From positions 3,710 through 67,709 of the forward strand of contig RFQR01000005.1 of assembly GCA_009924895.1 (NCBI GenBank): a stretch of 64,000 nucleotides of DNA, in the 5' to 3' direction. The DNA comes from a bacterium. Its GTDB lineage: Bacteria > Patescibacteriota > Minisyncoccia > Phycocordibacterales > UBA2100. Positions 28,514 to 58,796 of this stretch are shown here, one piece after another. How positions within the stretch are numbered: the first letter of the stretch is position 1; every line of letters starts with the position of its first letter. Below the pieces are notes generated by a model. That model had not been told where the DNA came from and ran no database searches. It was given only the letters and a program-made list of their open reading frames with translations. The position numbers were made by a program, and so were the translations under genes.

Positions 28514-28536
28514 TTGTGCAAGTCTGACTTGCACAA
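28514..28536. repeat. REP-like 23-bp palindrome TTGTGCAAGTCTGACTTGCACAA (copy A, upstream of trpS)
   Basis: Identical palindrome copies flank the RayT-like transposase gene at 41283 and 42065. Confidence 0.7.
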
Positions 28537-28672
28537 ACGAGAGCTTGCTGGATTTGTACTAGCAGGTACTATCAGAAGTATTACTAGCTAATACTTTTTT
28601 GAGTTTATATCTAAATGAGCGTGTGTCCCTACTCTGCCTGACGGCAGACGGGCTACGAGGAAGAGGGCCCAA

Positions 28673-28971
28673 CCCTAATTTTTAGGATAGTGTTGCAAAA
28701 TGTATGCGGTGTACGTAATCCAGCACTCTCGAGATAGAAGTCTGTATGTTGATTATACCAATAATCTCAAAACAAGACTGTCTCAACATAATGCGCGCGA
28801 AAATATCTCAACAAATAGAACGGAAGGTACTTGGAAGTATGTCTATGTTGAATTATATCGTTCTGAAAAAGATGCGCGCACCAGAGAGAAGAAGTTAAAA
28901 CACCACGGCACAGCAAAACATAAACTGTTTGAAAGAATAAGAGACAGTTGTTTTGAATCCTAAAAATTAGG
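28673..28971. repeat. pair of inverted 14-bp palindromic repeats (CCCTAATTTTTAGGA at 28673-28687; TCCTAAAAATTAGG at 28958-28971) bracketing the GIY-YIG gene
   Basis: Read directly. The right copy overlaps the stop codon. Confidence 0.6.
28700..28963 (+). CDS. GIY-YIG nuclease superfamily protein (UPF0213-like, stand-alone 87 aa)
   Basis: N-terminal YAVYVIQ...LYVDYT GIY-YIG motif followed by a conserved R and a later E/N region. Confidence 0.75.
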   Translation: MYAVYVIQHSRDRSLYVDYTNNLKTRLSQHNARENISTNRTEGTWKYVYVELYRSEKDARTREKKLKHHGTAKHKLFERIRDSCFES

Positions 28972-29138
28972 CCTGGGAATCGGACCCCTAAAACACGTAC
29001 GTGTTCGGGAGTATCTGCGGGAACCCTCTGGTTGTACTTTCAACCATAAATTACTTTTCAAATCGCTTGGGAAACTGGGCAGACAAAGAAAGTAATACAA
29101 AGTACTCATCAATCATATTTGATCTGGTAGCCCCAGTG

Positions 29139-29164
29139 GCTATTATCTAGTGGCTAATCACTAT
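29139..29164 (+). promoter_or_regulatory. putative promoter element CAGTGGCTATTATCTAGTGGCTAATCAC, 5-25 nt upstream of the glmS ATG
   Basis: Two tandem copies of the GTGGCTA(A/T)T motif family that also occurs upstream of rpmA and murG. Confidence 0.4.
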
Positions 29165-29168
29165 TTTT

Positions 29169-30917
29169 ATGTGTGGCATTTTTGGGTATGTCGGTTCCTC
29201 AGAAAAGGGACCTCAGTTAGTGCAAGAAGGTTTACAGAGACTCGAATATCGTGGTTATGACAGTTGGGGTGTCGGAGCTCTTGCGGGCGGAAGTATTAAT
29301 GTTTACAAAAAAACAGGCATTGTCTTCCGTGAGGCACTTCCCCTTCCTGTTGCAAATCGTGCGGTGGGTCATACACGCTGGGCAACGCACGGCGCTGTCA
29401 CGGATGCAAACGCACATCCGCATATGGCATCAGACAATTCTTTTATCCTCTGTCACAACGGGATTGTTGAAAACGCGGACGCCCTCAAGCAAAAATTACA
29501 AAAATATGCGTTCGTCTCGCAAACAGATACTGAAGTAATTGTTCATCTCGTTGAAGAGTATGCGAAAAAAGTTTCGCTTCAAGAAGCGGTACGCCGCGCG
29601 TTTAAGGAGCTCGCTGGGCGCAACACGGTTATTGTGCTTTCCCGCTCTGGTGATGTGTACGCAGTGCGCAACGGATCGCCCTTGGTTGTTGGTACGAATA
29701 AACGAGGGGAATACTTCTTCTCTTCAGATTCACTTTCACTCGGATCGCACGCAGAGAACATACTCGTTGTTGAAAATGGTCAGATGGTGGTTTGCTCGAA
29801 TGACGCACTTGCACTCTCGGTGGTGGCGACGGGAAAAAAAGCTACGCAAAAGTGGGAGGCATATCGCGCTCCTTCTACTGTTGCAGACAAAGGGTCGTAT
29901 CCACATTACATGATTAAGGAAATTCATGATTCCGCTGCTGCGGTATTGGAAGTCTTGAAAGATAAGACTAACTTTGCGCCATTGGTGAGTGCCATTAAAA
30001 AAGCACGAACGGTGTATTGCATTGGTTCAGGCACGGCAGGTGTCGCAGCGCAGCAGATTGCATTTTACTTACGCTCTATTGCAGGTGTGCGTGCAGTGCA
30101 CTTGATTGGTGGCGAAGCGAGTGAATATGCTGATCTTATCGGTAAAAGTGACCTCTGCATTGCGCCATCACAAAGTGGTGAGACAGCAGATGTGCTTGAA
30201 GTGTTAGAGAAGGCACAAAAGCGCGGAGCGAAAATTGCATCGTACGTAAACATGTACGGAAGCATGATGACGCGCATGTCTGACTTTCCGTTTATGGCAA
30301 ATGCTGGTCCCGAAATCTGCGTAATGTCGACAAAAATATTCACTTCACAAATTGCGTGGGGGTATATGCTTGCCCACCGTGTTGCAGGTACGGCGTCACG
30401 AGGTATACGAGACATCCGTGCTCTTGTCACGGGTATGTATAGGTACCTCGCGGATACTGACTCCCAAAAGCAGATTCAAGAATTTGCAAAAGAGGCAGCG
30501 CAGATGCCCCACCTATTTCTCATGGCAAAAGGGCAAAACGCAGCGATTATCCGTGAAGGCATGGTGAAGATTATTGAAGGGTCCTACGTGCACGCTCACG
30601 CAATTCCTTCGGGTGATTTGAAGCACTATGCTATTACGCTGATGGAAAAAGGCACGCCCGTAATCGCACTTGTTTCAGATGATGACGTGCGAACTGATGT
30701 AGAAAATGCAGTTCATGAAGTGACTGCGCGTGGAGCGCGCGTGGTTACGATTGGAGCTGAAGATGATGCGCTACTACGTGTGCCAAGAGTCGGAGGCGCA
30801 GCGGGTGCTGTGCTGAATGTACTACCGCTTCAGCTGCTCGCCTATCATATGGCTGTTGCGCGAGGAAACAATGTCGACAAACCGCGCAATATTGCGAAGA
30901 GTGTGACCGTCAAATAA
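29169..30917 (+). CDS. glmS: glutamine--fructose-6-phosphate aminotransferase (isomerizing)
   Basis: N-terminal MCGIFGY (Ntn Cys), two SIS domains and a C-terminal ...VTVK tail. 582 aa. Confidence 0.9.
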   Translation: MCGIFGYVGSSEKGPQLVQEGLQRLEYRGYDSWGVGALAGGSINVYKKTGIVFREALPLPVANRAVGHTRWATHGAVTDANAHPHMASDNSFILCHNGIVENADALKQKLQKYAFVSQTDTEVIVHLVEEYAKKVSLQEAVRRAFKELAGRNTVIVLSRSGDVYAVRNGSPLVVGTNKRGEYFFSSDSLSLGSHAENILVVENGQMVVCSNDALALSVVATGKKATQKWEAYRAPSTVADKGSYPHYMIKEIHDSAAAVLEVLKDKTNFAPLVSAIKKARTVYCIGSGTAGVAAQQIAFYLRSIAGVRAVHLIGGEASEYADLIGKSDLCIAPSQSGETADVLEVLEKAQKRGAKIASYVNMYGSMMTRMSDFPFMANAGPEICVMSTKIFTSQIAWGYMLAHRVAGTASRGIRDIRALVTGMYRYLADTDSQKQIQEFAKEAAQMPHLFLMAKGQNAAIIREGMVKIIEGSYVHAHAIPSGDLKHYAITLMEKGTPVIALVSDDDVRTDVENAVHEVTARGARVVTIGAEDDALLRVPRVGGAAGAVLNVLPLQLLAYHMAVARGNNVDKPRNIAKSVTVK

Positions 30918-30986
30918 ATAAAGAGACCCCTGTCGGTATAGCGGGGCTCTGTGGCGAAGTAGGGCAATCCTAGCAAACCGAGAAAC

Positions 30987-31214
30987 TTAGTCGATGTCTC
31001 TCAGGGCTGCTTTTGTGAAGAAGTACTCGTGCTCATGACTCGCGAACTCATCGTCCGTAAGTCTGAACAAAAGACGTTCCTCACATTGGATAAGGCGCCT
31101 TACTTCGTCGGCAGAGACCGCGAGGCCATTCTGCCGATCCTCCTTGAGATCCTTGGAAAAGATCTGAAGGAAGCGCTGTTTTTGAGGGGACAGCACCCTT
31201 TTGGTGTGGCTCAT
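30987..31214 (-). CDS. hypothetical small protein downstream of the histidine kinase
   Basis: 75-aa ORF. A weak hairpin plus T-tract terminator lies on the minus strand at about 30911-30950. The alternative plus-strand ORF 31029..31250 is less likely. Confidence 0.3.
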   Translation of the reverse strand: MSHTKRVLSPQKQRFLQIFSKDLKEDRQNGLAVSADEVRRLIQCEERLLFRLTDDEFASHEHEYFFTKAALRDID

Positions 31215-31274
31215 CGCCAGTACTCCAACCGCTACCCGATCGTAGCGTAATGAGATTATACATTATTAGTTAAT

Positions 31275-32900
31275 TTATGTCAAATTAATCTTGTCCAGTT
31301 CAATAATAAATCGTGACCCCTTATCCTTCCCTTCTGATTCTGCCCAGACTTTTCCACCCATACCTTCAATGAATGTGCGACCGAGATAGAGTCCAAGGCC
31401 AGTGCCAAGGAGGTTAGCCTTTTGCGCGTCAGCTCGCGCAAACTTTTGAAATAATTTCGGGAGCACTTCTGGCGGAATGCCGACACCCGTGTCAGAGACG
31501 GTCGCACGGACTTTTCCATCGTGTTCTGATACGGCAACAGAAATAGAACCAGTGCGTGTGTACTTAAGTGAGTTGTCGAGGATGTTACCTAGGACTTCTT
31601 TAAATTTACCAAGGTCACCTTTGGTCATGACTGATGGTGTTGTTGCGCTAAATTGCAGTCCCCTATCAGCTGCATGTGGACGAAAACCATCGGCAACCTG
31701 CGATACGGCGAGGCCAATGTCAAACGGTGCGATTGAATACGCTATTTGACCGAGTTCCATTTTTGAACGGTCCAAGAATTGTGAGATAAGACGCAGGACA
31801 TCATCACCGGTCAGAAGAATCTGATTCGCTGCACGCGTCGTATCTTTATTTGTCTCCCCCGTTGTGCCGTCAGTAATGAGAGATGCATATCCACGCATGG
31901 CAGTAATTGGATTTCTAATTTCATGTGAAGCAAATGCCATAAATTCTGATTTTTCTTGGCTCAGTTTTTCAACTTCTGCGCGCGCTTTTATCTCGGCGTT
32001 AACGCTTCGCACGAGCAGGTATCCAAAACCAGATATAAGAAAAAGAGAACACCCAACTAATACGTATGCCATTTCTGATGAAACAAACAGAAATTCTGAT
32101 CCAACAGACACGACCAGAGCCACCACGAGTGCTTGTGCGGCTACTAATTTTAGATTAAATGCTCCGTACTGGACTGTTGCATATGCAAGCATCCCGATAA
32201 AGAAAGACATGGTCGCTACTCCATACATCTCGAGACCAAAGTCAGGCAAGAAACCAGCGGAAACGAGATAGCTGTCGAGTGTTCCAGTAAATACAAATGC
32301 AAAAATAAACAGCAGACCGCTTACAATTACAATCCATTTTCCATTTCTTTCCGCCCTAGTATCTGTAATAGAGTCTCGATACCACTGATATGTGCTAAAG
32401 AATATTAAAAGAGTAGCAACAAGACCAAGAAAGTAATAGTAGTTAGTGAACGCGTTGTTCTCCACGACCGCACAGACTTGCGAATCGATACCCTTCACAT
32501 TAAATCCTGTTGGCGTTAACATGATTATGGGTGTCAGCAATAAACCCCACGTGTAAATGAGCCAATCTGGAGTTGTCTTTGAAAGATAGAGTTGTATAAA
32601 CCAATGAGTAAAGAAGAATGTAAAAGCAGTCAATAAACCGAATAACGACCATATAGCAATTTGGAGAGAGGGGCGGTCATAAAAAACCCATACAGTAATA
32701 TCGGCAAAGGTCCATAAAATAAATGTAACCGACAATAAACATAGTACGACTGCCTGCAGTGTTCGCGTATTGTAAAGTACGTAAAATCCGAATAGCGCAG
32801 AAAGGCACATCGCGGGAATGTGTGTGTACAGCAACAGTGGAAACGTCTCTGACAGTGTGTTGGAACAGGCGACCAAAAATGGTAAGAGGTTGTAACCCAT
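31275..32900 (-). CDS. sensor histidine kinase with polytopic N-terminal membrane domain
   Basis: H-box FMAFASHEIRNP, N/G boxes (GNILDNSLKYT, DTGVGIPPE, GTGLGLYLG) and about 8 N-terminal TM helices. No response regulator lies adjacent. Confidence 0.85.
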   Translation of the reverse strand: MGYNLLPFLVACSNTLSETFPLLLYTHIPAMCLSALFGFYVLYNTRTLQAVVLCLLSVTFILWTFADITVWVFYDRPSLQIAIWSLFGLLTAFTFFFTHWFIQLYLSKTTPDWLIYTWGLLLTPIIMLTPTGFNVKGIDSQVCAVVENNAFTNYYYFLGLVATLLIFFSTYQWYRDSITDTRAERNGKWIVIVSGLLFIFAFVFTGTLDSYLVSAGFLPDFGLEMYGVATMSFFIGMLAYATVQYGAFNLKLVAAQALVVALVVSVGSEFLFVSSEMAYVLVGCSLFLISGFGYLLVRSVNAEIKARAEVEKLSQEKSEFMAFASHEIRNPITAMRGYASLITDGTTGETNKDTTRAANQILLTGDDVLRLISQFLDRSKMELGQIAYSIAPFDIGLAVSQVADGFRPHAADRGLQFSATTPSVMTKGDLGKFKEVLGNILDNSLKYTRTGSISVAVSEHDGKVRATVSDTGVGIPPEVLPKLFQKFARADAQKANLLGTGLGLYLGRTFIEGMGGKVWAESEGKDKGSRFIIELDKINLT

Positions 32901-32904
32901 AGTT

Positions 32905-33687
32905 TTATTGGGGTCGATTCATTGGTGAAAAAAGCTCTCGCACCCCTTTTGGATAGTAATTCCAAAATGGTGAGCTGTCATTCTCTTCGGGGATCATTGG
33001 CACGATAAGGGGTCTGAGCCCAAAGAGGCGCTCTAATTCTTGGACTGCGGGTATTGCTTTATTGTAGGTAAAGTTTTTTTGCTCTTCGTCCGAATCTAGA
33101 AAGTTCTCAAATAAAATACCTTCGGTGACAAATAATCCTAGATACCTCAAATATGAGTGTTTATCTGAAAATTTTTCTGCAGAAAAAAACCATCCAGAAT
33201 AGTCAACAACGAGAGGTTTATTGGAAGAAAAATAACCCTCATACAATTTTTTATGAAACGATGTAAGGTGCTCCCCTTCCAATGTCATAACCTCTTTTAT
33301 TTGTTTTCCCTCGTTGTTCTTAAAATCGACTATAATTCTTTTTTCAATAATAGAAAAATGCAACGGATCGTCAGTGTCAGAGAAAATCATTTTCCCTAAA
33401 CACCTTTTCTCTGGGTTGAGACCAACAAATTTATCTTCAGGTCCTTGAAAAAAGAGTGTGGGTATAGAAAGTTGGGGCACCACTTTTTTTACGAAATGAT
33501 TAATTTCGTGGGTCGGGGATAGTAAAGCACGGGATACCACAGCGTATGGGACGTTTTGTAGTATTTCAGGCGACGGCAAGGTACGAAAATAAGAACTTAC
33601 AGCATTGAGAAGTGACTTGTCTGAGCGTCGATGTTCTAGCTCGCGTAGAGCCTTGTCAAGTGTAAAATAGAGATCATGTTTTTCCAT
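32905..33687 (-). CDS. hypothetical protein (260 aa), AT-rich gene
   Basis: Long ORF in operon position upstream of the kinase. No motif recognised. Confidence 0.45.
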   Translation of the reverse strand: MEKHDLYFTLDKALRELEHRRSDKSLLNAVSSYFRTLPSPEILQNVPYAVVSRALLSPTHEINHFVKKVVPQLSIPTLFFQGPEDKFVGLNPEKRCLGKMIFSDTDDPLHFSIIEKRIIVDFKNNEGKQIKEVMTLEGEHLTSFHKKLYEGYFSSNKPLVVDYSGWFFSAEKFSDKHSYLRYLGLFVTEGILFENFLDSDEEQKNFTYNKAIPAVQELERLFGLRPLIVPMIPEENDSSPFWNYYPKGVRELFSPMNRPQ

Positions 33688-33690
33688 ATA

Positions 33691-34071
33691 TCACAACGGT
33701 GATGAGCTTGCCTGTTCTGAAACGCTGCAGGGAATCTCAGAAGATGTATCACAATAACTTTCGAAACAGTTTACTCCATCGCTGGGTTTGCATTGTTGCT
33801 CCGGGCATTCACCTGCCCAAGCACGACACCTTTCAATGAGATATGCCTTTCGATGAATAAGCTTGTAGAAAGTGGGGGTTAGCAAACTGTCTCCAACGAA
33901 ACAAGAGTGTAATGACGGGTCACATGTTACGGGTGTTACTGTCATGTAATCCTGCCTTATGTAAAAGTGGTACACCGAGAAGAGAATGGATACACAAAAA
34001 CCAATCAGAAGTAATGAGAGTACAAAAGTGAACTTACGTCTCATGGGACTAGAGTATACAACATATTTCAA
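33691..34071 (-). CDS. membrane-anchored Cys-rich small protein (probable start MRRKF at 34044)
   Basis: Signal/TM helix followed by a domain with 9 Cys residues. Confidence 0.4.
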   Translation of the reverse strand: MKYVVYSSPMRRKFTFVLSLLLIGFCVSILFSVYHFYIRQDYMTVTPVTCDPSLHSCFVGDSLLTPTFYKLIHRKAYLIERCRAWAGECPEQQCKPSDGVNCFESYCDTSSEIPCSVSEQASSSPL

Positions 34072-34079
34072 ATGCCCTG

Positions 34080-34805
34080 TTATCTCAAGAACGAAGCGGC
34101 AAAGTAAATTTGGCGTACAACCTCAACTATAATAACCCATCGGAGCGTCCAGTATGCGTTTGAAAAAAGGACCGCTGTCCAAAAAATTTTCCAATCTCGA
34201 CGTGTCATCCCGTTAAACTGATTTTTTTTGTGCCTAAAATAAACCACTACCATAAAGGGGTCTCCATGCGTAGACAGAATTAGAAATGCTGGGATACTCC
34301 CAAGATGCAGTAATTTGCGTATCAAGTTTGCAAACCAACTTAGTTCGTGATCCTCATCCTTCCATTCTTTTATGAGCTCAAATCCAAGCCAGTCTCTTCT
34401 ACTCTTGTCGTACACTTGTAAATAAATAAGTGATATAACAGCAGAAAGAGGCATCATGACCCAGAAACTCCAAATGAGACCCCAAACAGTCCCAAAGTGA
34501 GCTGTGCACCATGCGGTTACTGTGCCATAAAGCAACCAATCAAAAAGAAACTCCTCAATCCTCTTTAACGTGTGCCCTGTCGCAACAATTGCGGCTTTTT
34601 TTCCATGAGAGTGATGTTCTGACACATACGTAGTATCACATAGAAAGAAGCAGGCGCCGATTTCGCGGCGCCTACTGTTCAGTTTGTGAGCTGTTGCCAG
34701 AGAGGTCGTAGCACTGGCTCGACGTAATCCCACACGTACCAGATGAGCTGAACTAACGCACTCCAGCGCACTGTCCAGTATGTGTTCGATACGAAAACGC
34801 TGCAC
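34080..34805 (-). CDS. hypothetical polytopic membrane protein, paralog 1 of a tandem pair (true start probably internal, near 34600-34625)
   Basis: Shares EEFLFDWLLYG...W(Y)C...DWLG(F/L)EL with the upstream paralog. The 5' end of the track ORF overlaps the paralog 2 gene by 127 nt. Confidence 0.45.
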   Translation of the reverse strand: MQRFRIEHILDSALECVSSAHLVRVGLRRASATTSLATAHKLNSRRREIGACFFLCDTTYVSEHHSHGKKAAIVATGHTLKRIEEFLFDWLLYGTVTAWCTAHFGTVWGLIWSFWVMMPLSAVISLIYLQVYDKSRRDWLGFELIKEWKDEDHELSWFANLIRKLLHLGSIPAFLILSTHGDPFMVVVYFRHKKNQFNGMTRRDWKIFWTAVLFSNAYWTLRWVIIVEVVRQIYFAASFLR

Positions 34806-35248
34806 CAGAAGATATTAGTGTCACGTCCGGTTAGCTTCGTGTACGTTTCGCCTTTTTTTCGAAAATATACTGTCGTCATGAACGGGTCAGTCCAGAACGA
34901 CAATACAAAAAAAGCAGGTACACCCTTTCCGCTTCGCACGATTGCTCGTGCTTTTCTGGTGAACCAATTTCCACCTTTTGAGCGTTTCAATTCTTTTAAG
35001 AGCTCAAGTCCAAGCCAGTCTTTGCCGATTGCGTTGTAGATTGCAATCCAAAAAAAAGACACGCAAGCAGAAAGTGGCGCCATGATGCAAAATGCCGCCA
35101 GGCTTCCATATACGGGACCCCATTCGGCGTTGCAATACCACGTTACTGCTCCATACAAGAGCCAATCGAAAAGGAATTCTTCGACCCGCTTGAATCCATG
35201 GCCGGTCATGATGGTGCCGGCACGGATGAAAACATTTTTCCATGCCAA
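34679..35248 (-). CDS. hypothetical polytopic membrane protein, paralog 2 of a tandem pair
   Basis: 189 aa. Motifs as for paralog 1. Confidence 0.5.
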   Translation of the reverse strand: MAWKNVFIRAGTIMTGHGFKRVEEFLFDWLLYGAVTWYCNAEWGPVYGSLAAFCIMAPLSACVSFFWIAIYNAIGKDWLGLELLKELKRSKGGNWFTRKARAIVRSGKGVPAFFVLSFWTDPFMTTVYFRKKGETYTKLTGRDTNIFWCSVFVSNTYWTVRWSALVQLIWYVWDYVEPVLRPLWQQLTN

Positions 35249-35589
35249 AGCACATCTCCTTCCTGTTGGTGACCACCACGGTCACGCTGTTTATTTTTAT
35301 ACCACGATTTCAAGCTAATTACAAACTCTACTTATGAAACTGCTTTGTAGTATGTTTCTTAACGCCACCGAGTACCCCCTTGCATCGTCGAGTGCATTAT
35401 GGGTGTGCTCAGGCATGCCTCTGGTTACCTCTTCTGGCCAGTGTAGCGTCTGATGGTGCAGGAGTAGATATTTCAAACGGTGTTAGTGCGTCAATGTGTT
35501 CAATGTAGCACAAGTGGGTTGTGAGTTTGCGTGACGCCACATTCACTGCCGCTCCTTGCATAAAAGCCTCTACCCCTCATAATTCCCTT

Positions 35590-36921
35590 ATGATCCCACG
35601 GCATATTGCCTTGGTTTCTTCCTTCGCCCTCCTATCGTTGTTTTCTGTTGCATCAGCTGCGCAGTGCAGCATGGTATGGGATAAGACGCTTCGCAAAGGA
35701 ATGACTGGCCCACAGGTGTCTGCTCTCCAGGCATATTTTGGTCTCGAACAGGCGGGTATCTATGGCAATAAGACCGTTGCTGCAGTGAAAGCATTCCAGA
35801 AAAAAAATGGCATTACCCAAACCGGTGAACTGGGGCCCAAAACTCGCGCGGTTCTCAACTCACTTTGTGTCGTTCCACTGGCATCTACCGCAACATTAAC
35901 TGGTCAAGTAAATGGCGTCGAAATTGTCGCTGATGCACTGACTGTTTCGGATGCTGCCCAGCCCTCACCAACTCTTGCTCCCCCGAACGCGCTCTATGTT
36001 CCCTTCACGCGCTTCACGCTCACGGCTGGGCCTAAGGATGTAACTGTAAAAAGTATCACCGTTAAGCGAGTTGGCATGGGGCAAGATCAGGCTTTTGACT
36101 ACATTTCACTTCTGGACGATTCAAATTCAGAAGTAACTTACGGCTATATTGGTAGTGAGCACAAAATTGTATTTAACCGTGACACTATCACTATCCCGGC
36201 TGGTGAGTCACAAATATTTACGATTGCTGGCAATATGAAAGATGATCTCACTGACTATGACGGACAGATGCCAGCGTTACGCCTTAGTGCAATTGTTGCG
36301 TCGTCGCCTGTTGGCGGCACGCTCCCTATTACTGGAACCATGCAAACGATCAACGAGTCATTAACGATTGGAACGGCAGAAACTGCACTTTCGTCGTTTG
36401 ATCCAGGTGCCGCTAATAATCGCACCATTAATGATACAGCTGTGCGCTTCTCTGGTATTCGAATCAGTGCGGGTTCAAAAGAGGACTTAATCTTAAAAGG
36501 AATTACCTGGCGCCAAAATGGGAGCGCAAGTATGAATGATCTTGCGAATGTCGTTGTTACTGTTGATGGAATAAGCTATCCAACCGAAGTGAGTGATGGG
36601 CGCGACTACTACGCTTCTATCCAGAATACTATTATTCCGAAAGGTTTCTCGAAGGATATTTACATCTCTGGTGATATTCTTCCTTCAGCAGCAAACAGAA
36701 CCGTGAAATTTGATATCAAAGATTCTGCAAACATTGAAGTGTGGGGCAAGATGTACGGTTTTGGTATTGCTCCCTACCCAGCATCAAATACTGCGGATAC
36801 GGGCGAATCAGTTTTTCTCACCACCGACGGCACGACTGACGGCGATTCACTCTCTCCATTTTTCTCTGGTTCAACAGCGACGATTTACGGGGCAACCATC
36901 AACGGGTTCTCAAAAATTTAA
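35590..36921 (+). CDS. secreted protein with N-terminal peptidoglycan-binding (PG_binding_1-like) domain
   Basis: Signal peptide MIPRHIALVSSFALLSLFSVASA, then LRKGMTGPQVSALQAYF...AVKAFQKKNGI. The S/T/G-rich remainder has no recognised motif. Track ORF starts at 35521. Confidence 0.6.
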   Translation: MIPRHIALVSSFALLSLFSVASAAQCSMVWDKTLRKGMTGPQVSALQAYFGLEQAGIYGNKTVAAVKAFQKKNGITQTGELGPKTRAVLNSLCVVPLASTATLTGQVNGVEIVADALTVSDAAQPSPTLAPPNALYVPFTRFTLTAGPKDVTVKSITVKRVGMGQDQAFDYISLLDDSNSEVTYGYIGSEHKIVFNRDTITIPAGESQIFTIAGNMKDDLTDYDGQMPALRLSAIVASSPVGGTLPITGTMQTINESLTIGTAETALSSFDPGAANNRTINDTAVRFSGIRISAGSKEDLILKGITWRQNGSASMNDLANVVVTVDGISYPTEVSDGRDYYASIQNTIIPKGFSKDIYISGDILPSAANRTVKFDIKDSANIEVWGKMYGFGIAPYPASNTADTGESVFLTTDGTTDGDSLSPFFSGSTATIYGATINGFSKI

Positions 36922-37406
36922 CCTCTTGCAAATGAGAGCAGCGAGAACGAACCAACAATAATCCAAAAGAAATAGCTCGCAGTGATGTATTCGGCAACAC
37001 TACCGAAATGCCACAGCGTACCAAGAGCAGGGACACTGTTCCACATCAGAAGCATGAGCGCGGTTGCTCCGAGTGCTGCGCAGAGTGACGACACGATACC
37101 GATACCGAAATCTCCATAGGAAATCGTCATGCGGCGTACTGCAAGATAGGTGACCACAAATATTCCGCCAAAGACGAGCGCCTGCATTTTCTCAGTAGAT
37201 GCTGCCGTTATAATTCCTGAAAGCAGAAATGTCTGAGACAGAAGAGAAAAGAGATACGGTGCAATGAGTGCAGTAAGACCAAGTGTTACTGCTCGTCCCG
37301 CGCCACCGCGCATTGCATCAAGTGCTACCAGGGTAAAAAAAGCGAGAATAATAAACCAGTCTGATGCAATAACGGCGAGTGTCGTCGAAAGTGACGGTGC
37401 GTGCAT
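36918..37406 (-). CDS. small 4-TM membrane protein (CvpA-family-like, uncertain)
   Basis: 162 aa, four hydrophobic segments. Size and topology match CvpA, but no specific motif was checked. Confidence 0.35.
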   Translation of the reverse strand: MHAPSLSTTLAVIASDWFIILAFFTLVALDAMRGGAGRAVTLGLTALIAPYLFSLLSQTFLLSGIITAASTEKMQALVFGGIFVVTYLAVRRMTISYGDFGIGIVSSLCAALGATALMLLMWNSVPALGTLWHFGSVAEYITASYFFWIIVGSFSLLSFARG

Positions 37407-37413
37407 GCCGCCA

Positions 37414-38496
37414 TTATAGCCCCTCGCTACGCATTTTCTCTACCAATTCGCGTGCGGAACGTGATAACTTTTTAGGGAACGTAATATCAATTTTTACGAG
37501 CAAGTCGCCGCGAGAGCCGCGCGCAAGTGGAACGCCGCGACCGCGGATACGCAGCACTTCACCGTGGGTGATGCCCGCCGGCACCGAAACAGAAACATCC
37601 CCATCAGGAGCAGCTATGGTAAAATCTCCCCCCAACAGCGCGTCGGTCAATTTAATAGAAAGTGATGTTAGTAAGTGATTTCCTTCGCGCGTAAAGTGCT
37701 TGTCGGCACGTACATGTACTTTTACGTACAAATCTCCGGCAGTACCACTGAGTATTGCTTCACCCATACCGGGCATGCGAATCATTTCTCCGTCTTCTAT
37801 GCCAGATGGCACGGTGATACGGATTTCCTCTTGCCGTTTTTGAACTCCTTCGCCACGACACAAAGCGCAGGCTTCTTGCGGTACCTGCCCGCGTCCGTGA
37901 CAGGTCGGACAGGGACGACTTGAGGTAAATGCACCAAAGAAGGTATTGCGTGACTCGTGTATTTCACCCTTGCCGTTGCAGATGCTGCATGATTGCATCT
38001 TGCTTCCCTTTTTCGCACCGGTTCCTTCGCACGTCGCACACGCTGACAGTTTTGAAATGAGAACGCGGCGCTCTGTGCCAAAGAGCGCTTCTTTGAGTGG
38101 CAACTCAACATCGATGGAAATGTCGCGACCTCGTCTCTGGCGCGGTCCTCGTCGCCCCCCTGCTCCAAACATTTCACCGAAGATATCGCCGAGATCGAAT
38201 TCAAACGATTGACCATTTTGGAATCCACCAAAGTTTGAAAAATCAAAACCGCCAAAATTACCGGGTCCTCCTGCGCCCCCCATGCCTGGTCCTGCCTGCC
38301 CAAAGGTGTCGTATTGTTGGCGTTTTTGTTTGTCGGAGAGTACCGCATAGGCCTCGCTCACCTCTTTGAACTTTGCCTCGTCGCCGCCTTTTTTATCAGG
38401 ATGATATTTGTGCGCAAGCGTTCGAAACGCCTTTTTTATGTCGTCTTCTGAAGCACTTTTGGATACCCCTAAGATGTCGTAATAGTTTTTTGCCAT
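37414..38496 (-). CDS. dnaJ: chaperone DnaJ
   Basis: J-domain with HPD (KYHPDKK), a G/F-rich linker, and four CxxCxGxG zinc-finger repeats. Confidence 0.9.
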
Positions 38497-38518
38497 AGGT
38501 TAAGACTAAGGAAGAATA

Positions 38519-39370
38519 TCAAGAGAGAAATTGTTTTACAAATCGATTATAGCGCCACTGTTGGAGCTTCGGGTGAGCCTGCATACCCGCCGTTGACCAG
38601 ATGCCGCGAAGGAATGCAAAGTCGTCAGCGGCAGAGTCGCTATCGATGCGGTGCTCTGCATACAGCGTCGCAACCATTGCGAGGTATCGAGCCTTTTGTC
38701 TATCAGAATAACGATAGGCTGTAAAATATTCGAAGGTGTGCTCGTCTGGAAACCAGTCTATAGCAGCGAGGGCTGTCACGCCGTCGTATCCAACAGGACA
38801 ATGAAATGAATCTTCAAAATCAATCACGCCGTCGACATACATGTTGTGCGGATTGAAATCACCGTGTGTAATAACCCACGGAAGATTTTTCATTCGTTCA
38901 AACGCATCGTCAAAGCGTTGCACTAGTCTTGCCGCATGCGCTGGAAGTTCAGCACACAACTCAGTAAGGTGTACAGCGTGTGCGACACGCTCTTTTGAGC
39001 CCACTGACCCGGCAGTTTTGAGCTGTGCAGTCAGAAATGCCTTGGCGGTAGTAATAAACTTATCGAAATGTGCGTCATCGATAGCCCCAGACCTCGCAAC
39101 ATCTTCTTTGAAGATGGTGCCAAAGTGCGGTGATGAGAGGGAGGTTTCGGTGTAATAGGATTGACCATTGTATTCTCCGCGCTCAAGAATTTTTGGTGTT
39201 GGGAAACCAAACTGTTCAAGATGAACATGGGTAGCGAGGTGCTCCTCGACAATACTTTTTGGTCCAATACGAAGAAAGGTGTTTTGTCCTTTGTACACAT
39301 TCACGCTCGAGCGCTGAGCGCGTACGAGCGTGAACGGTACCCCATGTATTGTGAGGGTTTCCTCGGCCAT
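38519..39370 (-). CDS. aminoglycoside-phosphotransferase-like (APH / choline-kinase) family kinase
   Basis: Brenner motif ITHGDFNPHNMYV and a downstream IDFEDS (D-x-E), 283 aa. Lies between dnaK and dnaJ. Confidence 0.6.
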   Translation of the reverse strand: MAEETLTIHGVPFTLVRAQRSSVNVYKGQNTFLRIGPKSIVEEHLATHVHLEQFGFPTPKILERGEYNGQSYYTETSLSSPHFGTIFKEDVARSGAIDDAHFDKFITTAKAFLTAQLKTAGSVGSKERVAHAVHLTELCAELPAHAARLVQRFDDAFERMKNLPWVITHGDFNPHNMYVDGVIDFEDSFHCPVGYDGVTALAAIDWFPDEHTFEYFTAYRYSDRQKARYLAMVATLYAEHRIDSDSAADDFAFLRGIWSTAGMQAHPKLQQWRYNRFVKQFLS

Positions 39371-39373
39371 GCA

Positions 39374-41230
39374 CTATTGCTGAGGTGGAGTGTCTTGTGG
39401 TGGAGTCTGCTCCTCTTGCGGCGCGCCCTGCGCCTTCGACAGCGCCTCGCCAATTTTAGAGAGTGAAGTCGAGAGTGCACTCACTGCACTTTGTAGCACC
39501 GCATTATCAGTGCCGTTTCGAGCAGCTTTCACTGCGTCAATTTTTTCTTGCACTTCTTTCTTCACATCTTCGCCTGCTTTGTCGCCGTATTCTTTGAGTG
39601 ACTTTTCTGCGCTATAGACCAATGAGTCTGCATTGTTCTGTGTTTCAACCAGCTCCTTTTTCTTTTTGTCTGATTCAGCATTTGCATCGGCATCTTTGCG
39701 CATCTTTTCTACTTCTGCATCAGAGAGCCCTGACGAAGCCTCAATGCGGATGGACTGCTCTTTACCACTGGTCTTGTCTTTTGCTTTGACCGAGAGGATG
39801 CCGTTTGCGTCAATGTCAAAGGTGACTTCTACTTGTGGCACGCCGCGGGGTGCGGGTGGAATGCCATCGAGATTGAAGCGGCCAAGTGATTTGTTGTCTC
39901 CCGCCATTGAGCGCTCGCCTTGCACAACGTGGATTTCCACTGATGGCTGGTTGTCTGAGGCGGTTGAGAACACCTGTGAGCGCGATGTTGGGATGGTGGT
40001 GTTGCGCTCGATAATTTTCGTGGCAACGCCTCCCATCGTCTCGATACCGAGTGAGAGTGGAATAACGTCAAGAAGCAGCACATCTTTCACATCACCCTGC
40101 AAGATGCCTCCCTGAATCGCTGCACCGAGTGCGACGACCTCGTCGGGGTTCACGCTCATGTTTGGCTTCTTGCCAAAGTACGTCTCAACCGCTTTTTGAA
40201 GCGCTGGCATGCGAGTCTGACCGCCAACGAGAATAACTTCGTTGATGTCACCGATCTTAAATGGCGATGCCTCCATGGCACGTTTCGTGATCATAAGAGC
40301 GCGGTCAACGAATTCCTGTGCGAGCTCTTCGAGCTTTGCACGAGTCATTTTCACCAAAAGGTGCCGAGGACCTGATGCGTCTGAGGTGATAAAGGGGATG
40401 TTAATTTCAGTTTCTACCGCACTCGAAAGCTCAATCTTTGCTTTTTCTGCTGCTTCATCTAAGCGCTGGCGAGCGAGCGCATCAGTACGTACGTCGATGC
40501 CTGATTCTTTCTTAAACTCGTCGGCAAGATAATTCATGATCTTCTGATCAAGATCTTTACCGCCTAGGTGTGCATCGCCATCGGTTGAGCGTACTTCGAT
40601 AACATCATCGCCCACTTCGAGCACCGAGATGTCGAACGTACCACCTCCGAAGTCAAAGACCACAATCTTTTCGTTTTTCTTTTTGTTGAAGCCGTATGCG
40701 AGTGCCGCTGCGGTTGGCTCGTTGATGATGCGCTTCACATCGAGTCCTGCAATTTTGCCGGCATCTTTGGTTGCCTGGCGCTGGTCGTCGTTGAAATATG
40801 CAGGAACAGTAATGACGGCTTCGGTGATTTTTTCACCCGTTTTGGCTTCTGCGTCTGCTTTCATTTTCTGAAGAATCATCGCAGAAACTTCTTCAGGGCG
40901 ATATTTTTTGTCGCCCATAGTGACTTCGACACCGCCGTTTGCTGATGCGCTCACTTCAAATGGAACCGAAGCCTTGTCTTTCTGCACGGCATCCTCTTTG
41001 AAGGAGTGGCCTATAAATCGCTTGATTTGATACACCGTGTTTTTTGGATTGGTGACTGCCTGGCGTCTTGCAAGCAGACCAACAAGGCGCTCTCCTGTTT
41101 TAGAGGTTGCAACGATTGACGGCGTGGTGCGCGCACCCTCAGCGTTCTCAATGATTTTAGGCTCACCTGCCTCGACAATCGCCATTGCCGAATTTGTGGT
41201 TCCCAAGTCGATTCCAAGAATTTTTGCCAT
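39374..41230 (-). CDS. dnaK: chaperone DnaK (Hsp70)
   Basis: N-terminal [19 protein letters not shown], and a C-terminal lid with an EEQTPPQD tail. 618 aa. Confidence 0.95.
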
Positions 41231-41282
41231 ACACTTTAGATTAAAATAAGTAAGTAGTAACTAGTATACGCCCGATTTCTTT

Positions 41283-42087
41283 TTGTGCAAGTCAGACTTG
41301 CACAATTAAAATACTTTTTTATTATATGTCAATAGCTATTCTAATAAACTCCTCATCATCATCAAGTTCGCCCGAAAGGAAGCTTTGTGCTCGCGCATGA
41401 AGATCACGCATCGTTGGCATAATCTCTTGTATTGCGGCATGATCAACGATGGAGCCTCGCCTATTACCTGAATAGTCGCGCAAGCTTGCAAACGGGTACT
41501 GAAGAGCCCACTCCCACGCCGCAGCAAATTCTTTGCGAGCCCTCTGTATTCCCCCATCGTACAGCTCAAAAGGATTTTTTACTTGTATGTACGTAGAAAG
41601 ATGCTGAAGGTACTCATCATCTTCTACGGTTCGTGCCTTGTATGCGCCTTGGAATAATGTCCCATTCTCCTCGTATTTTGTGTTGTAGTAGAGCGCCATA
41701 CTGGTGCAAAGCCTCTGCATGTACCGCGCGATTCCATTCTCAGTATTTTCACGCAGGAGTAAATGGAAGTGGTTGTCCATAAGGCAAAATGCAAGTATCG
41801 AAACGTATGGTTTTGCCTCTGGCCAATGCCCGGGGCGTCGATATCCAAAGCGAATATCTTCGGGACTCACGTCCCTCTCCCAGTTCCGAGGCACATTTTC
41901 ATCGTTGAGGTAGCGAAGTAGCTTTAAAAAACGCCATCGATCTGCTTCATCTCGAACAATAGGCATGCCACGTGTCCCCCGTTTTAAGACGTGTACGTAT
42001 GATCCAACCGAAAACGGCTCTTTTCTCATAGCTTTTTGACACAATGCTATCAGGTGTATTGTAATTGTGCAAGTCTGACTTGCACAA
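41283..42087. mobile_element. REPtron-like unit: RayT/IS200-like HUH tyrosine transposase gene flanked by inverted copies of a 23-bp REP palindrome
   Basis: The palindrome TTGTGCAAGTC(A/T)GACTTGCACAA sits at 41283-41305 and 42065-42087 in opposite orientation around CDS 41322..42044. A third copy lies at 28514. Confidence 0.6.
41322..42044 (-). CDS. rayT: REP-associated tyrosine transposase (RayT / TnpA_REP, IS200-like Y1 HUH family)
   Basis: HUH motif MDNHFHLLL and a catalytic Tyr motif YIQVKNP. 240 aa. Confidence 0.65.
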   Translation of the reverse strand: MCQKAMRKEPFSVGSYVHVLKRGTRGMPIVRDEADRWRFLKLLRYLNDENVPRNWERDVSPEDIRFGYRRPGHWPEAKPYVSILAFCLMDNHFHLLLRENTENGIARYMQRLCTSMALYYNTKYEENGTLFQGAYKARTVEDDEYLQHLSTYIQVKNPFELYDGGIQRARKEFAAAWEWALQYPFASLRDYSGNRRGSIVDHAAIQEIMPTMRDLHARAQSFLSGELDDDEEFIRIAIDI

Positions 42088-42147
42088 AAAAAGTGGGTTT
42101 TGGGGTGAAAGCGTGGTGTGCTGTGGGTGCTAGCGGAAGCACGGTGA

Positions 42148-42684
42148 TTACTTTTGGCAGATGACCTGTGCGGGGCGGATGATGCGGTCTCCTATCTTAT
42201 AACCGTTGCGGATGACCTTAAGCACGGTCCCGCTCTCCTTCCCTTCGTCCGACTCACTGATTACTTCGTGGAGTGTGTGGTCGAGCTTCTCCCCCGCTGC
42301 CCCAAAGCGCGCGACTCCGTTTTGGCTGAGTATGTTTACAAACTGCGACTGGATGTATTCGATGCCCTTGCGCCACTCGGCAGAGACACTCCCCCATGTT
42401 GATGATCCCATTGCCATATCGAATCCATCAAGAACGGGCAAAAGTTCTTCCGTCAGAGACTCTCGGGCACGGGATTCTGCACGCTCTGCATGTGCGCGAG
42501 CTTCTTTCAGCATATTTGCAGCATCAGCACGGGCACGTTGCCAGCCGTCAAGATTATCTTGTGCTTCTTTTTTTGCGGCTGCAAGTTCCACTTTAAGCTT
42601 AGCAATTTTTGCTTTGAGGCCACCTACCCCGTTTTCGTCTTCTTGCTCAAAGTCGATATCGACTGCGTTGTATTCTGAAGTCAT
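42148..42684 (-). CDS. grpE: nucleotide exchange factor GrpE
   Basis: GrpE C-terminal four-helix bundle and beta domain (FDPxxH-like region HEVISESDEG, IRPAQV). 178 aa. Confidence 0.85.
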   Translation of the reverse strand: MTSEYNAVDIDFEQEDENGVGGLKAKIAKLKVELAAAKKEAQDNLDGWQRARADAANMLKEARAHAERAESRARESLTEELLPVLDGFDMAMGSSTWGSVSAEWRKGIEYIQSQFVNILSQNGVARFGAAGEKLDHTLHEVISESDEGKESGTVLKVIRNGYKIGDRIIRPAQVICQK

Positions 42685-42711
42685 GCCGCGAGTATATCAA
42701 AAAATGTGTAC

Positions 42712-42745
42712 AAAACAAAAAGACCCTGCAAAGGGTCTTTTTGTT
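42712..42745 (-). terminator. intrinsic terminator (AAAGACCCT - GCAA - AGGGTCTTT flanked by A/T tracts, bidirectional form) after the surface-protein gene and upstream of grpE
   Basis: Read directly. Confidence 0.7.
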
Positions 42746-42757
42746 GATAGGTGTACG

Positions 42758-44443
42758 TTAGTTCGGTCCGCCAAACCAATTTTTAATTTTGGACCATAAT
42801 CCGGTGCCTGAGTTCGAATCGTTGCTTGGTGGCACTATTCCTCCGGTACTTGAAGACGTATCAGATGGCTGTCCCTCTACGCCATCTTGCTGAGGTGCGT
42901 TACCGTTACCCAGTGGTGGTCGCAATGTCTTGTTCTGGTTTCTGAATGAGTCAATTATTTTTTGCTCATCTGAAGAAAGTGAGAACTGCGCAGTGTTTTT
43001 ACAGTATATCTCGTTGATCTTCTTTTGGGTGGTCAAGTACACGAACCCAGTTCCAGAACTTAGACCCCAAGGAGCAAGGATTTGAGAGCGGTACTTCTCC
43101 TGGAACGCCTTTACCGCAGCAGTGGTCTTTGTGTCGTACACACCAGTTATATCAATATCCATTTTCTTGAAATCTCGGAGTACCGTCTGCAAGCGTCGTA
43201 CTTGTTCAGGATTATTTGTTCGACGGGGCCCAAGAAAATCGGTGACATAGCGTTCGCATGCTGGTCCGAAGTCAGGTTGCGTCGAGGTAGATGTACCCAA
43301 GACTTGTCCGCTCGGAATCCCGCTGCCGTTACTGACGCCGAATGTACCAGTAATCGGGCCATTTCCACCACCACCGCTCGTCGGTGTCGGCGTAGGGAGG
43401 ATGACGGGCACAGGATAGTTACTGAACGATATCATAGTTATTGGTTCTTCAATGCCAGCAGGATGTCCCATAGTAACTAATTGACCAGGATTTGAGAGCG
43501 AAACCCCAAAGTAGGTGCCTGTATCAATCGTAAATCCGGTAGGAACGGTGACACCGTTTTCAAATGTCGTTACCACGGTACTTGAGCCAAATACTCCAGT
43601 TCCAGTCGGATACGTGCGATTCCAGCCTGACTGTTTGCCTTCGAGCACAAAGAAGTAACCTGTTTCGGGAACGTAGATGGTTGCAGTTCCCGATGCATTC
43701 GTGAGTCCGCTTGCAACAATGTGGAGATACACGATACCTTCCTCTCCTTCGTATTGTTCGGCGATGAAGAATGGCCAGTTTGCAACACCTGGTTCAGTGA
43801 ACGACTCTCCTTCATCTTTTACCCCAACAGTGCCGCTTTCAGTTGAGTCGTTCCAGTCACGGATACCATCGTTGTCGGTATCCTGCCACTTCGTCACAGT
43901 GATTGATGGATTCTGCCAGTTGCCAAAGTTGTATGGAGAATACACTTGGTTACTTGTTACAAAGACATCAAAGTATGCCGGTGACGATGGCGTGACCTGG
44001 GTCCATCCCGCACGCTGCTCCTCAGTGATTCTCCACCAACCATTCTCTGTTGGTGCAAACGAGAATGAGTAGAGGCCGCTTTCTGAATCAGTGGTTACTT
44101 GTTTTGCGCTGCGCGCTCCCGTTGAGGTTGCAAGGGTGATGCCTTCCTCTGCAATGTTGTCCATAGGCGTTGCGAAGATATTCCAGCCCCCGAGAGAGCT
44201 TTCCTCTCCCCACACCCCATTTCGGTTATAGTCGTTTGGAGTATTCGTTACCGATCCGGTCCACCCCGATACTGTGCCTTCAGTTTGAGGAAGGAGAGCT
44301 GCTGTGGTGTCAGCAAACGCAATTCCCGAAGGAATGGTTCCAGAGACTAATGCAAAAATGGTAAGTGCAGAGACCGTACGAGAAACTCGGTGTGCCCAGT
44401 TTTTTGAGAGAAACGAAACTCCGGATGATGGAAGCGCGTTCAT
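42758..44443 (-). CDS. large secreted/cell-surface protein with C-terminal-proximal peptidoglycan-binding-like domain
   Basis: Signal peptide (MNALPSS...GIAFA), a G/T/S/N-rich body, and a VRRLQTVLRDF...AAVKAFQEKY PG-binding-like motif. Track ORF extends to 44497. Confidence 0.55.
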   Translation of the reverse strand: MNALPSSGVSFLSKNWAHRVSRTVSALTIFALVSGTIPSGIAFADTTAALLPQTEGTVSGWTGSVTNTPNDYNRNGVWGEESSLGGWNIFATPMDNIAEEGITLATSTGARSAKQVTTDSESGLYSFSFAPTENGWWRITEEQRAGWTQVTPSSPAYFDVFVTSNQVYSPYNFGNWQNPSITVTKWQDTDNDGIRDWNDSTESGTVGVKDEGESFTEPGVANWPFFIAEQYEGEEGIVYLHIVASGLTNASGTATIYVPETGYFFVLEGKQSGWNRTYPTGTGVFGSSTVVTTFENGVTVPTGFTIDTGTYFGVSLSNPGQLVTMGHPAGIEEPITMISFSNYPVPVILPTPTPTSGGGGNGPITGTFGVSNGSGIPSGQVLGTSTSTQPDFGPACERYVTDFLGPRRTNNPEQVRRLQTVLRDFKKMDIDITGVYDTKTTAAVKAFQEKYRSQILAPWGLSSGTGFVYLTTQKKINEIYCKNTAQFSLSSDEQKIIDSFRNQNKTLRPPLGNGNAPQQDGVEGQPSDTSSSTGGIVPPSNDSNSGTGLWSKIKNWFGGPN

Positions 44444-55850: not shown

Positions 55851-55887
55851 CAAAAAGAATGCGGGCGGCGCTTTAAGCGCCGCCCGC
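55851..55887 (-). terminator. intrinsic terminator (GCGGGCGGCGC - TTTAA - GCGCCGCCCGC, then ATTCTTTTTG on the minus strand)
   Basis: Read directly. Perfect 11-bp GC stem. Confidence 0.7.
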
Positions 55888-55896
55888 AAAAGCCTA

Positions 55897-58626: not shown

Positions 58627-58682
58627 CCAAGGGTTACCCTTGGGAGCAACAAGTCCCTTTACTTTACCAAGGGTAACCCTTG
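58627..58682. promoter_or_regulatory. two copies of a 17-bp palindrome (CCAAGGGTTACCCTTGG at 58627-58643; CCAAGGGTAACCCTTGA at 58667-58683) 40 bp apart, upstream of the secreted Cys-rich protein gene
   Basis: Read directly. The same-phase spacing suggests a dimeric-regulator operator pair. Confidence 0.5.
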
Positions 58683-58796
58683 ATAACTTAGTAAAACTTT
58701 GCATACTGAATTTGTGTGAGATTGTAAATTATGAAAAAAATGGCATAGTAAAAACGGTTTGGGGCAGTACCCGAACCTTCACAAAAGGAACAGAGA

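Follow-up and report, generated by a model that had tools for sequence, protein, structure and literature searches.

RAYT/REP systems, which combine a REP-associated tyrosine transposase (RAYT, also RayT or TnpA_REP) with repetitive extragenic palindromes (REP), are the textbook example of a domesticated bacterial transposase, and it is still debated whether the repeats benefit the host. Those investigated to date, as cited here, come mostly from proteobacteria. The E. coli REPtron is composed of a fixed single-copy Y1 HUH gene, cognate palindromes on both sides and dispersed copies (PMC3333891, PMC3479197, PMC2817692). RayT carries a conserved Asn four residues past the catalytic Tyr (PMC3333891) and a C-terminal extension with an acidic autoinhibitory tail (PMC3479197), and according to passages in PMC3333891 and PMC3733652 a GTAG (or CGTC) tetranucleotide is located 5' of the canonical REP hairpin. 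The unit described here, found in a 64-kb stretch of contig RFQR01000005.1 from a bacterium of the Candidate Phyla Radiation (CPR)/Patescibacteria (in the following, the window), is alike in its layout: a Y1 HUH gene between grpE and dnaK is bracketed by two inverted copies of a 23-nt perfect palindrome, TTGTGCAAGTC-W-GACTTGCACAA, and a third copy stands alone. We regard it, with a probability of roughly 0.7, as a REPtron-like unit, i.e., a fixed single-copy Y1 HUH endonuclease, a distant relative of RayT/TnpA_REP, and the hairpin palindrome cognate to it. It is best taken as a CPR-specific variant of the RAYT/REP kind, whose activity and cellular role are inferred. The host and the position of the gene in a heat-shock operon set it apart from the E. 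coli REPtron, and no description of such a system in CPR bacteria has been found in literature searches. CPR genomes are very small and leave little room for selfish DNA.

Further relatives of this arrangement have been described. Passages of PMC8266576 report a second TnpA_REP group (S. maltophilia, Marinomonas) with perfect palindromes that have co-evolved with the enzyme, as observed here; the GTAG motif has been examined there too, and the CPR palindrome has none. RAYT Groups 1 and 4 are likewise of low copy, with flanking 16-mers occurring only ~12-14 times per replicon (PMC5581495). The IS200/IS605 insertion sequences (IS200, IS608, ISDra2) resemble the unit in their Y1 HUH fold, in the hairpins close to both tnpA ends and in their compact size of ~0.8 kb.

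Palindromes at the Y1 Locus

A pattern search of the window has returned exactly three perfect matches to TTGTGCAAGTC-W-GACTTGCACAA (Table 1), in agreement with the initial annotation, against an expectation of 0 from 100 shuffles of the window; neither further copies with up to three mismatches nor isolated half-sites have been found in it. The upstream copy lies 60 nt past the grpE stop and is embedded in a ~34-nt unit (42057-42092) of the form TATTGTAA-palindrome-AAAAA, and the downstream copy lies 52 nt ahead of the dnaK ATG. The distances to the Y1 gene, first given as 17 and 21 nt, are actually 16 nt past its stop and, on the other side, 20 nt to a TTG at 42044 or 35 nt to the favored ATG at 42029. 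After reverse-complementing one of the gene-flanking copies, 33 of 35 positions agree (TATTnTAA-palindrome-AAAAA, with TATTnTAA toward the gene), and the two are therefore true inverted repeats of a ~34-nt unit in this genome. The opposite orientations claimed in the initial annotation are thus real in the window; elsewhere the central base is not consistently inverted, and its consistent inversion between both flanks has been rejected across genomes. The third palindrome, in what may be the trpS leader named in the initial annotation, is found 68 nt upstream of the probable trpS ATG (28445, - strand) and 163 nt upstream of a divergent GIY-YIG open reading frame (ORF; 28700-28963, + strand). 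Each copy is predicted to form a hairpin on single-stranded DNA, with 10 bp in the stem and 3 nt in the loop, at about -10 kcal/mol (z = -5 to -6).

The Y1 Protein

The maximal ORF of the Y1 gene extends to the TTG at 42044 (240 aa), and the ATG at 42029 has been favored as the start by an alignment with 30 homologues. The HUH motif and catalytic Tyr first noted for ORF 41322-42044 are present and invariant in homologues: the HUH motif, DNHFHLLL, holds H87 and H89 (nt 41763-41771), and the catalytic Tyr is Y147 (nt 41589-41591). The Tyr motif, initially read as Y-x3-NP, is actually Y-x4-NP (Y147-I-Q-V-K151-N152-P), with Lys at Y+4 and Asn at Y+5. Residues N86, H87, H89, Y147, K151, and N152 are invariant in 31 aligned sequences of 48-63% identity, and the catalytic apparatus is therefore under selection.

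The protein matches the Pfam family Y1_Tnp with 41.7 bits (cutoff 23, E = 1.5e-10), over profile positions 41-119 only. Its AlphaFold model (pLDDT, the predicted local distance difference test score, 89.3) has the topology beta-alpha-beta-beta(HUH)-alpha-beta-alpha(Y), followed by a helical C-terminal domain of ~80 residues (~155-235) beyond the Y1 core. In the PDB the fold of this model is matched best by 4er8, the structure of E. coli TnpA_REP bound to a REP hairpin (E = 2.7e-6 over 207 columns), and the IS200/IS605 TnpAs rank behind it with E ~2e-4. Like E. coli RayT, the protein is longer than IS200 TnpA and has a C-terminal extension that ends acidic (ELDDDEEFIRIAIDI), an end that can be compared with the E161 tail of RayT only tentatively. 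It shares only 12% identity with RayT in the structural alignment, and RayT has 165 aa with a ~25-residue tail compared to 235 aa with the ~80-residue helical domain here.

Homologues are numerous. At E <= 1e-5 they form 704 clusters (90% identity) among 5.8 billion proteins, the best match being 63% identical; those listed have ~211-274 aa, most of them 229-241, and where sources are named these are Parcubacteria, Kaiserbacteria, Paceibacterota or Patescibacteria. Some have been labelled 'REP element-mobilizing transposase RayT' by JGI. In an exhaustive profile search, clusters at the 50% identity level number 256 with E <= 1e-30 and 7,681 if E is relaxed to 1e-10, and most Y1 protein clusters are represented by one contig only. 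A large clade that had not been described before, with at least 256 clusters at 50% identity (704 at 90%), is hereby added to the known systems.

Synteny of grpE, Y1, and dnaK

The order grpE-Y1-dnaK has been observed in the window and in L001, L002, L006, L018, L034, L047, L050, L054, L055, L057, L080, and L138 (L-numbers denote stretches from related genomes or metagenomic contigs), with identities of 43-52% for GrpE, 52-63% for Y1 and 79-84% for DnaK. All 18 contigs with protein P0026, from different samples, show an S9-grpE-Y1-dnaK-dnaJ locus. The comparison of grpE-dnaK spacing proposed with the initial annotation gives 917 nt from the grpE stop to the dnaK start here, with the Y1 gene inside, vs ~49 nt in L088, where no Y1 gene lies between. 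Since the order is common to at least 13 genomes with only 43-52% identity among their GrpE proteins, the Y1 unit is ancient and fixed in this clade and is not a recent insertion, and the initial picture of an element inserted into the operon needs to be changed accordingly; its description as domesticated fits the single fixed Y1 locus. Pairwise divergence of Y1 does not correlate significantly with that of GrpE or DnaK (rho 0.19 and 0.0), the divergences being star-like, and vertical co-inheritance is therefore argued from synteny only.

The compact hairpin-tnpA-like-hairpin layout (~805 bp), together with a Y1 fold that also matches IS200/IS605 TnpAs, would also suit an autonomous IS200-type insertion sequence that has transposed into the grpE-dnaK spacer, with the palindromes as left and right hairpins and the solo copies as targets or remnants. 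In other sub-lineages (L003, L048, L052) the Y1 unit sits in unrelated contexts and has thus moved at least occasionally, and the missing correlation of divergences means that trees do not prove co-inheritance. Such an origin is nevertheless very improbable, as the unit occupies one locus per genome, identical in the 18 contigs from different samples and common to genomes as diverged in GrpE as given above, and the multi-copy, variable-site distribution of a mobile sequence is not seen, most protein clusters being found on one contig. Both ends are the same ~34-nt sequence in inverted form, whereas IS200/IS605 ends are distinct and have no terminal inverted repeats, and solo palindromes are found at orthologous positions in diverged genomes. 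Excision of IS200/IS605 elements is precise and leaves no hairpin behind. The CPR gene also differs from these elements in having no tnpB and in being ~90 aa longer.

A few observations concern the surroundings of the locus in relatives. In L088 (5001-8107), a 36%-identical Y1 homologue without clear flanking palindromes is located directly upstream of grpE-dnaK-dnaJ, which is a second association of the Y1 family with the heat-shock operon. L080 (2777-3660) has ~900 nt of extra DNA between grpE and the palindrome with the Y1 gene, and the grpE-Y1 junction is therefore not inviolate. An APH-type phosphotransferase is also placed between dnaK and dnaJ in L057 (36% identity) and is absent in L050, L054, and L138.

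Pairing of Palindrome and Y1 Lineage

Homologue loci have been picked by the protein and not by the palindrome, which has given 44 metagenomic loci down to about 30% identity. In ~25 of the 44, the same perfect palindrome precedes the start by 13-50 nt and follows the stop by 0-30 nt, and ~5 further loci have imperfect palindromes at both gene ends. The core of the window palindrome brackets the Y1 homologue between grpE and dnaK in L001, L034, and L047, and parts of this layout have been seen in L002, L006, and L018. More than 12 different flanking palindrome sequences have been found, each of them lineage-specific (e.g., TGTGCAAGTC, TGTGCAAGTT, TGTGCAAGCT, TGTGCATACC, TGTACATACC, TGTGGGTATC, and further TGCGGAAGTC, TGTGGAGGTT, TTGGCAAGGTC, TTCGGAAGTC, GGGGGAAGCT), and in an alignment of 21 distinct ones all 11 stem pairs vary on both sides. 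As the flanking sequences have been selected as palindromes, the high percentage of paired positions arises by construction; the presence of the same sequence at both ends and its variation with the protein lineage do not, and they make up the defining REPtron pattern. A G.T wobble variant of the stem occurs in L146 and in the downstream copy of L057, and the compensated G-C form is found at L022:972. Such a series is the classical way in which the stem of a single-stranded hairpin evolves, and it speaks for selection on this hairpin. An A.G mismatch variant, a wobble on neither strand, is present in the upstream copies of L054 and L057 and in the MurB gene of L137.

Regarding the perfect dyad symmetry of the site, one may alternatively think of a duplex operator for a dimeric transcription factor (Y1 or another protein), which would connect dnaK, Y1, trpS, and other genes in a stress regulon and include autoregulation. 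Copies are found upstream of both the dnaK and the Y1 ATG (52 and 35 nt), TTGCAC is placed 16-17 nt ahead of -10-like hexamers (TATACT, TAGCAT), the copies are kept perfect without a decay series, and the distant homologue in L088 occupies the place directly upstream of grpE-dnaK-dnaJ where hrcA is usually found. A CIRCE element, the operator of HrcA (TTAGCACTC-N9-GAGTGCTAA), has been rejected with 0 window matches at up to three mismatches, which leaves room for another operator; the window palindrome itself, with a 1-nt spacer and a sequence unrelated to CIRCE, is therefore not the classical heat-shock operator. Against regulation of this kind, the palindrome tracks the Y1 gene and not dnaK, bracketing Y1 even beside unrelated neighbours, and its distance is tight to Y1 (0-50 nt) and variable to dnaK (24 to 100 nt). 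A promoter would find no room in several homologues, where only 13-15 nt separate the upstream copy from the start codon, many copies are located 3' of genes or inside ORFs, the invariant HUH and Tyr residues would be needless in a pure DNA-binding regulator, and the G.T intermediates fit a hairpin and not a duplex site. A scan of 41000-43000 for promoters and terminators has given nothing at the palindromes. Taking these points together, we consider an operator improbable and the REPtron-like unit the better description of the pairing.

Other palindromes of this kind have been noticed in the relatives. L062 carries downstream of its homologue (975-1035) two imperfect inverted palindromes 3 nt apart, a REPIN-like doublet (TGAGCAAACCAGGTATGCTCA aat TGAGCATACCTGGTTTGCTCA). 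A second family of the same build, TACAGAGATC-W-GATCTCTGTA, is present at L039:4216-4238 and 4252-4274, L041:6981-7001, and L042:3792-3812 and shares the metagenome-assembled genome (MAG) DATKNP01 with the TGTGCAAGTC family, and L017, L026, L033, and L042 contain yet other families built around a single central base.

Dispersed Copies in Related Genomes

A scan with the 21-nt core over one genome per species (185,579 species) has revealed 60 exact sites on 47 stretches from 21 MAGs, all of them CPR/Patescibacteria as deposited; outside CPR no exact core has been found among these genomes, and viral contigs have given 0 matches. About 42 of 63 exact copies are extragenic, in spite of a non-coding share of only ~9-12% (binomial P < 1e-20), and most of the extragenic copies are placed in very short spacers between co-directional genes. 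A preference for pyrimidines (T 56%, C 34%) at position -1 is the only bias seen in 126 half-flanks, and variable complementary flanks extend the stem by at least one pair in 45 of the 63 copies and by at least two in 24. A conserved position at trpS has been rejected, the copy of L014 being located 3' of trpS.

The placement in short co-directional spacers and the extended stems would also be in line with a role at the RNA level, i.e., mRNA hairpins in operons and coding regions that serve stability, processing or translation, with Y1 only as their historical disseminator. The G.T pair, which is G.U in RNA, falls on the MurB coding strand in L146 and on the Y1 sense strand in L057, and for E. 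coli REPs an effect on mRNA stabilisation and transcription termination has been hypothesised, according to passages in PMC3733652. A terminating or stabilising hairpin, as had been suggested initially, finds no support at the window palindromes: a T-tract following the hairpin on the transcribed strand has not been found there, and the terminator scan is empty. The A.G mismatch variant (upstream in L054 and L057, MurB in L137) is not explained by RNA wobble on either strand. Unrelated host genes share the sequence itself and not just the structure, and the sequence changes from one Y1 lineage to another, which points to recognition by the protein. A primarily RNA-level function is rather unlikely, and an RNA-level role is compatible with the REPtron-like unit.

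Two features of the dispersed copies are mentioned separately. An extra half-arm (e.g., GACTTGCACA 6-7 nt after the palindrome, or a TGTGCAAG half-site just before it) adjoins some copies (L033:6085-6121, L034:5290-5326, L048:9970-10007, L036:1415-1451, L026:3840-3876), and such half-arms may be footprints of cleavage and rejoining. A stand-alone GIY-YIG ORF (85-87 aa) adjoins the solo palindrome both in the window and in a Wildermuthbacteria MAG (L012:5520-5777), at 163 and 51 nt, respectively, with 33% mutual identity.

Relation to Canonical RayT/REP

The IS200-type, operator, and RNA-level explanations are less well supported than the REPtron-like reading, and the following results weigh against the latter. 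The curated RayT equivalog of NCBIfam, NF047646 (REP_Tyr_transpos), scores 30 bits vs a cutoff of 80, in an alignment limited to residues 81-155, and a profile search of PDB sequences has given no match at E <= 1. The Asn stands at Y+5 next to the invariant Lys at Y+4, whereas that of RayT is found at Y+4 (PMC3333891). No GTAG or CGTC tag is found 5' of the hairpin in the 126 half-flanks. Proliferation as known from REP is not evident, with 1-9 exact copies per MAG, which are lower bounds because the MAGs are incomplete. In the 47 stretches, 63 perfect cores contrast with 3 that carry 1-5 mismatches, so that a decay series is missing. About 21 of the 63 exact copies lie in frame inside genuine genes of relatives (none is intragenic in the window), and those in MurB are length-neutral. 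The near-absence of decayed copies and the length-neutral intragenic ones are not as a simple selfish insertion predicts.

Of the RayT-like identity proposed at the outset, the Y1_Tnp match and the 4er8 fold have stood, and the RayT equivalog score and the Asn at Y+4 have not. Likewise, the REPtron architecture has been confirmed in its own palindromes on both sides, their lineage specificity, and the solo copies, and is lacking in the tag, the copy number, and strict extragenicity; the extragenic enrichment asked for at the outset is strong in the 21 related MAGs, though at these low counts. E. coli REPs, by comparison, occur in hundreds of copies, while the CPR palindrome is perfect, has a single central base and is without GTAG, and one third of its copies are intragenic in relatives. 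As the system misses the profile cutoff, the Asn at Y+4, the GTAG tag, high copy number, and strict extragenicity, we have filed it as a CPR variant and not as a canonical RayT/REP.

In-Frame Copies Inside Genes

The genes with an in-frame copy include those of leucyl-, valyl-tRNA synthetase (LeuRS, ValRS), MurB, DnaE, TrmD, and Dus (Table 1), and further SMC, a thioredoxin-reductase-like enzyme, an HhH-GPD glycosylase, SNase, an alpha/beta hydrolase, and a reverse transcriptase. The palindrome is free of stops in every frame unless the central base makes TGA, and the peptide it encodes varies with the frame (CASQTCT, VQVRLAQ or LCKSDLH). Within MurB the palindrome stands in place of a beta-strand (VxLxLxK in relatives), with the length unchanged across 119 orthologues. 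This block is hypervariable, as motif-free pairs of 72-85% overall identity differ at 4.5 of 7 residues, and the exact VQVRLAQ is common to 13 scattered MurB orthologues. For a synonymous test, three MurB genes have been picked by the peptide VQVRLAQ alone, which makes the test non-circular: two of the three have the exact palindrome DNA, and the third differs by one synonymous CAA-to-CAG change, a G.T wobble in the stem. Synonymous differences amount to 2 of 21 same-amino-acid codon pairs in the MurB block vs 44 of 74 in the flanks (P = 4e-5).

Lineage-specific variants have been found in the MurB slot as well. In L136 (gene at 1501-2421) it holds TTGTGCAAGCT-A-AGCTTGCACAA, with a compensatory change at the stem tip, and in L137 (3524-3546) it holds TTGTGAAAGTT-A-AACTTGCACAA. 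The latter equals the copy upstream of Y1 in L057 (4951-4973), apparently from the same organism, at 23 of 23 positions including the mismatch, which suggests concerted evolution of intragenic and gene-flanking copies. The MurB tree is star-like; palindrome-bearing MurBs are not one clade, and the resolution is too poor to separate gains from losses. A search of LeuRS homologues has found none with the motif, and as these are mostly partial LeuRS from other phyla the search is uninformative on it. The LeuRS slot is roughly length-neutral (+2 aa), and insertion-like length differences have been seen in DnaE (+8 aa), TrmD (+14 aa), and the reverse transcriptase (+1 aa).

Palindromic repeats tolerated in frame in housekeeping genes of a reduced genome, as found here in relatives, are also known from the Rickettsia palindromic elements (RPE; PMC10969869). 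Unlike the CPR element, these are ~150 bp long, enlarge the protein by a peptide segment, and are not known to be associated with a transposase; the CPR element has 21-23 bp, is length-neutral in MurB (about +2 aa in LeuRS), and changes along with the Y1 gene. Intragenic in-frame copies under selection have not been reported in the RAYT literature examined.

Proposed Mechanism and Role

Based on homology with RayT and the IS200/IS605 TnpAs, the palindrome would fold on single-stranded DNA into the 10-bp stem with its 3-nt loop, and the Y1 protein would bind this hairpin. The HUH histidines would hold a divalent metal ion, and Tyr147 would cut beside the hairpin via a 5'-phosphotyrosine link, able to rejoin the strands. 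Cleavage and rejoining would in turn create or maintain hairpin copies.

One may tentatively go further and postulate, as a possibility short of an even chance, that the hairpins are more than selfish passengers of the REP type: integrated into the host as a small set of sites, they would be read by a domesticated HUH enzyme whose expression is coupled to that of the DnaK chaperone machinery. This would fit because the copies are perfect over deep divergence and occupy orthologous slots in essential genes without length change, and because they resist synonymous change and switch to the current variant of their lineage via wobble or compensatory intermediates. If true, it would imply concerted evolution by gene conversion or strand-transfer replacement and a cellular role, e.g., stress-linked processing of single-stranded DNA at replication forks. 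With few and nearly always perfect hairpins under nucleotide constraint in essential genes, the question of selfish vs functional repeats becomes directly testable by comparative genomics, and a 23-nt perfect palindrome without a tag offers a minimal enzyme-hairpin pair for studying HUH substrate recognition.

Feature Coordinates and Other Features of the Window

Table 1. Features of the Y1 locus in the window, and exact palindrome copies inside genes of related genomes (L-numbers).
Feature	Position	Strand	Basis or remark
Y1 HUH endonuclease/transposase-like coding sequence, 235 aa	41322..42029	-	ORF list, homologue alignment, profile, model
grpE	42148..42684	-	upstream neighbour
dnaK	39374..41230	-	downstream neighbour
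APH-like kinase ORF	38519..39370	-	between dnaK and dnaJ
dnaJ	37414..38496	-	same operon region
Upstream palindrome TTGTGCAAGTC-T-GACTTGCACAA	42065..42087	no strand	pattern search
Downstream palindrome TTGTGCAAGTC-A-GACTTGCACAA	41283..41305	no strand	inverted copy of upstream unit
Solo third palindrome	28514..28536	no strand	divergent spacer trpS / GIY-YIG ORF
LeuRS copies	L022:2874, L027:7199, L040:5330, L042:2941		4 genomes, same position
ValRS copies	L004:1870, L010:5828		2 genomes, same position
MurB copies	L007:1859, L041:2453, L044:232, L046:7726		4 genomes, same position
DnaE copy	L039:6406		intragenic, in frame
TrmD copy	L019:125		intragenic, in frame
Dus copy	L009:417		intragenic, in frame

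Elsewhere in the window, a glmS ribozyme (28929-29106; Rfam RF00234, 40 bits vs a gathering score of 37) has been found upstream of glmS (29169-30917), with the 3' end of the GIY-YIG ORF reaching into the ribozyme at its 5' end. A 24-nt perfect inverted repeat (4625-4648 / 4653-4676) comes after a tRNA-Ala (4558-4631), the 3' end of which is contained in the first arm; the repeat could be a terminator or the relic of an integration site. Another palindrome, CCAAGGGT-W-ACCCTTGG, occurs twice (58627-58643 and 58667-58683, 23 nt apart, one with 1 mismatch) in the 224-nt spacer upstream of ORF 58797, with 0 expected by chance, and the two copies resemble paired operator sites. Convergent ORFs enclose one more perfect palindrome, TGCGGGCGGCGCTT-T-AAGCGCCGCCCGCA (55860-55888), which is GC-rich and has 14-bp arms around one central base.

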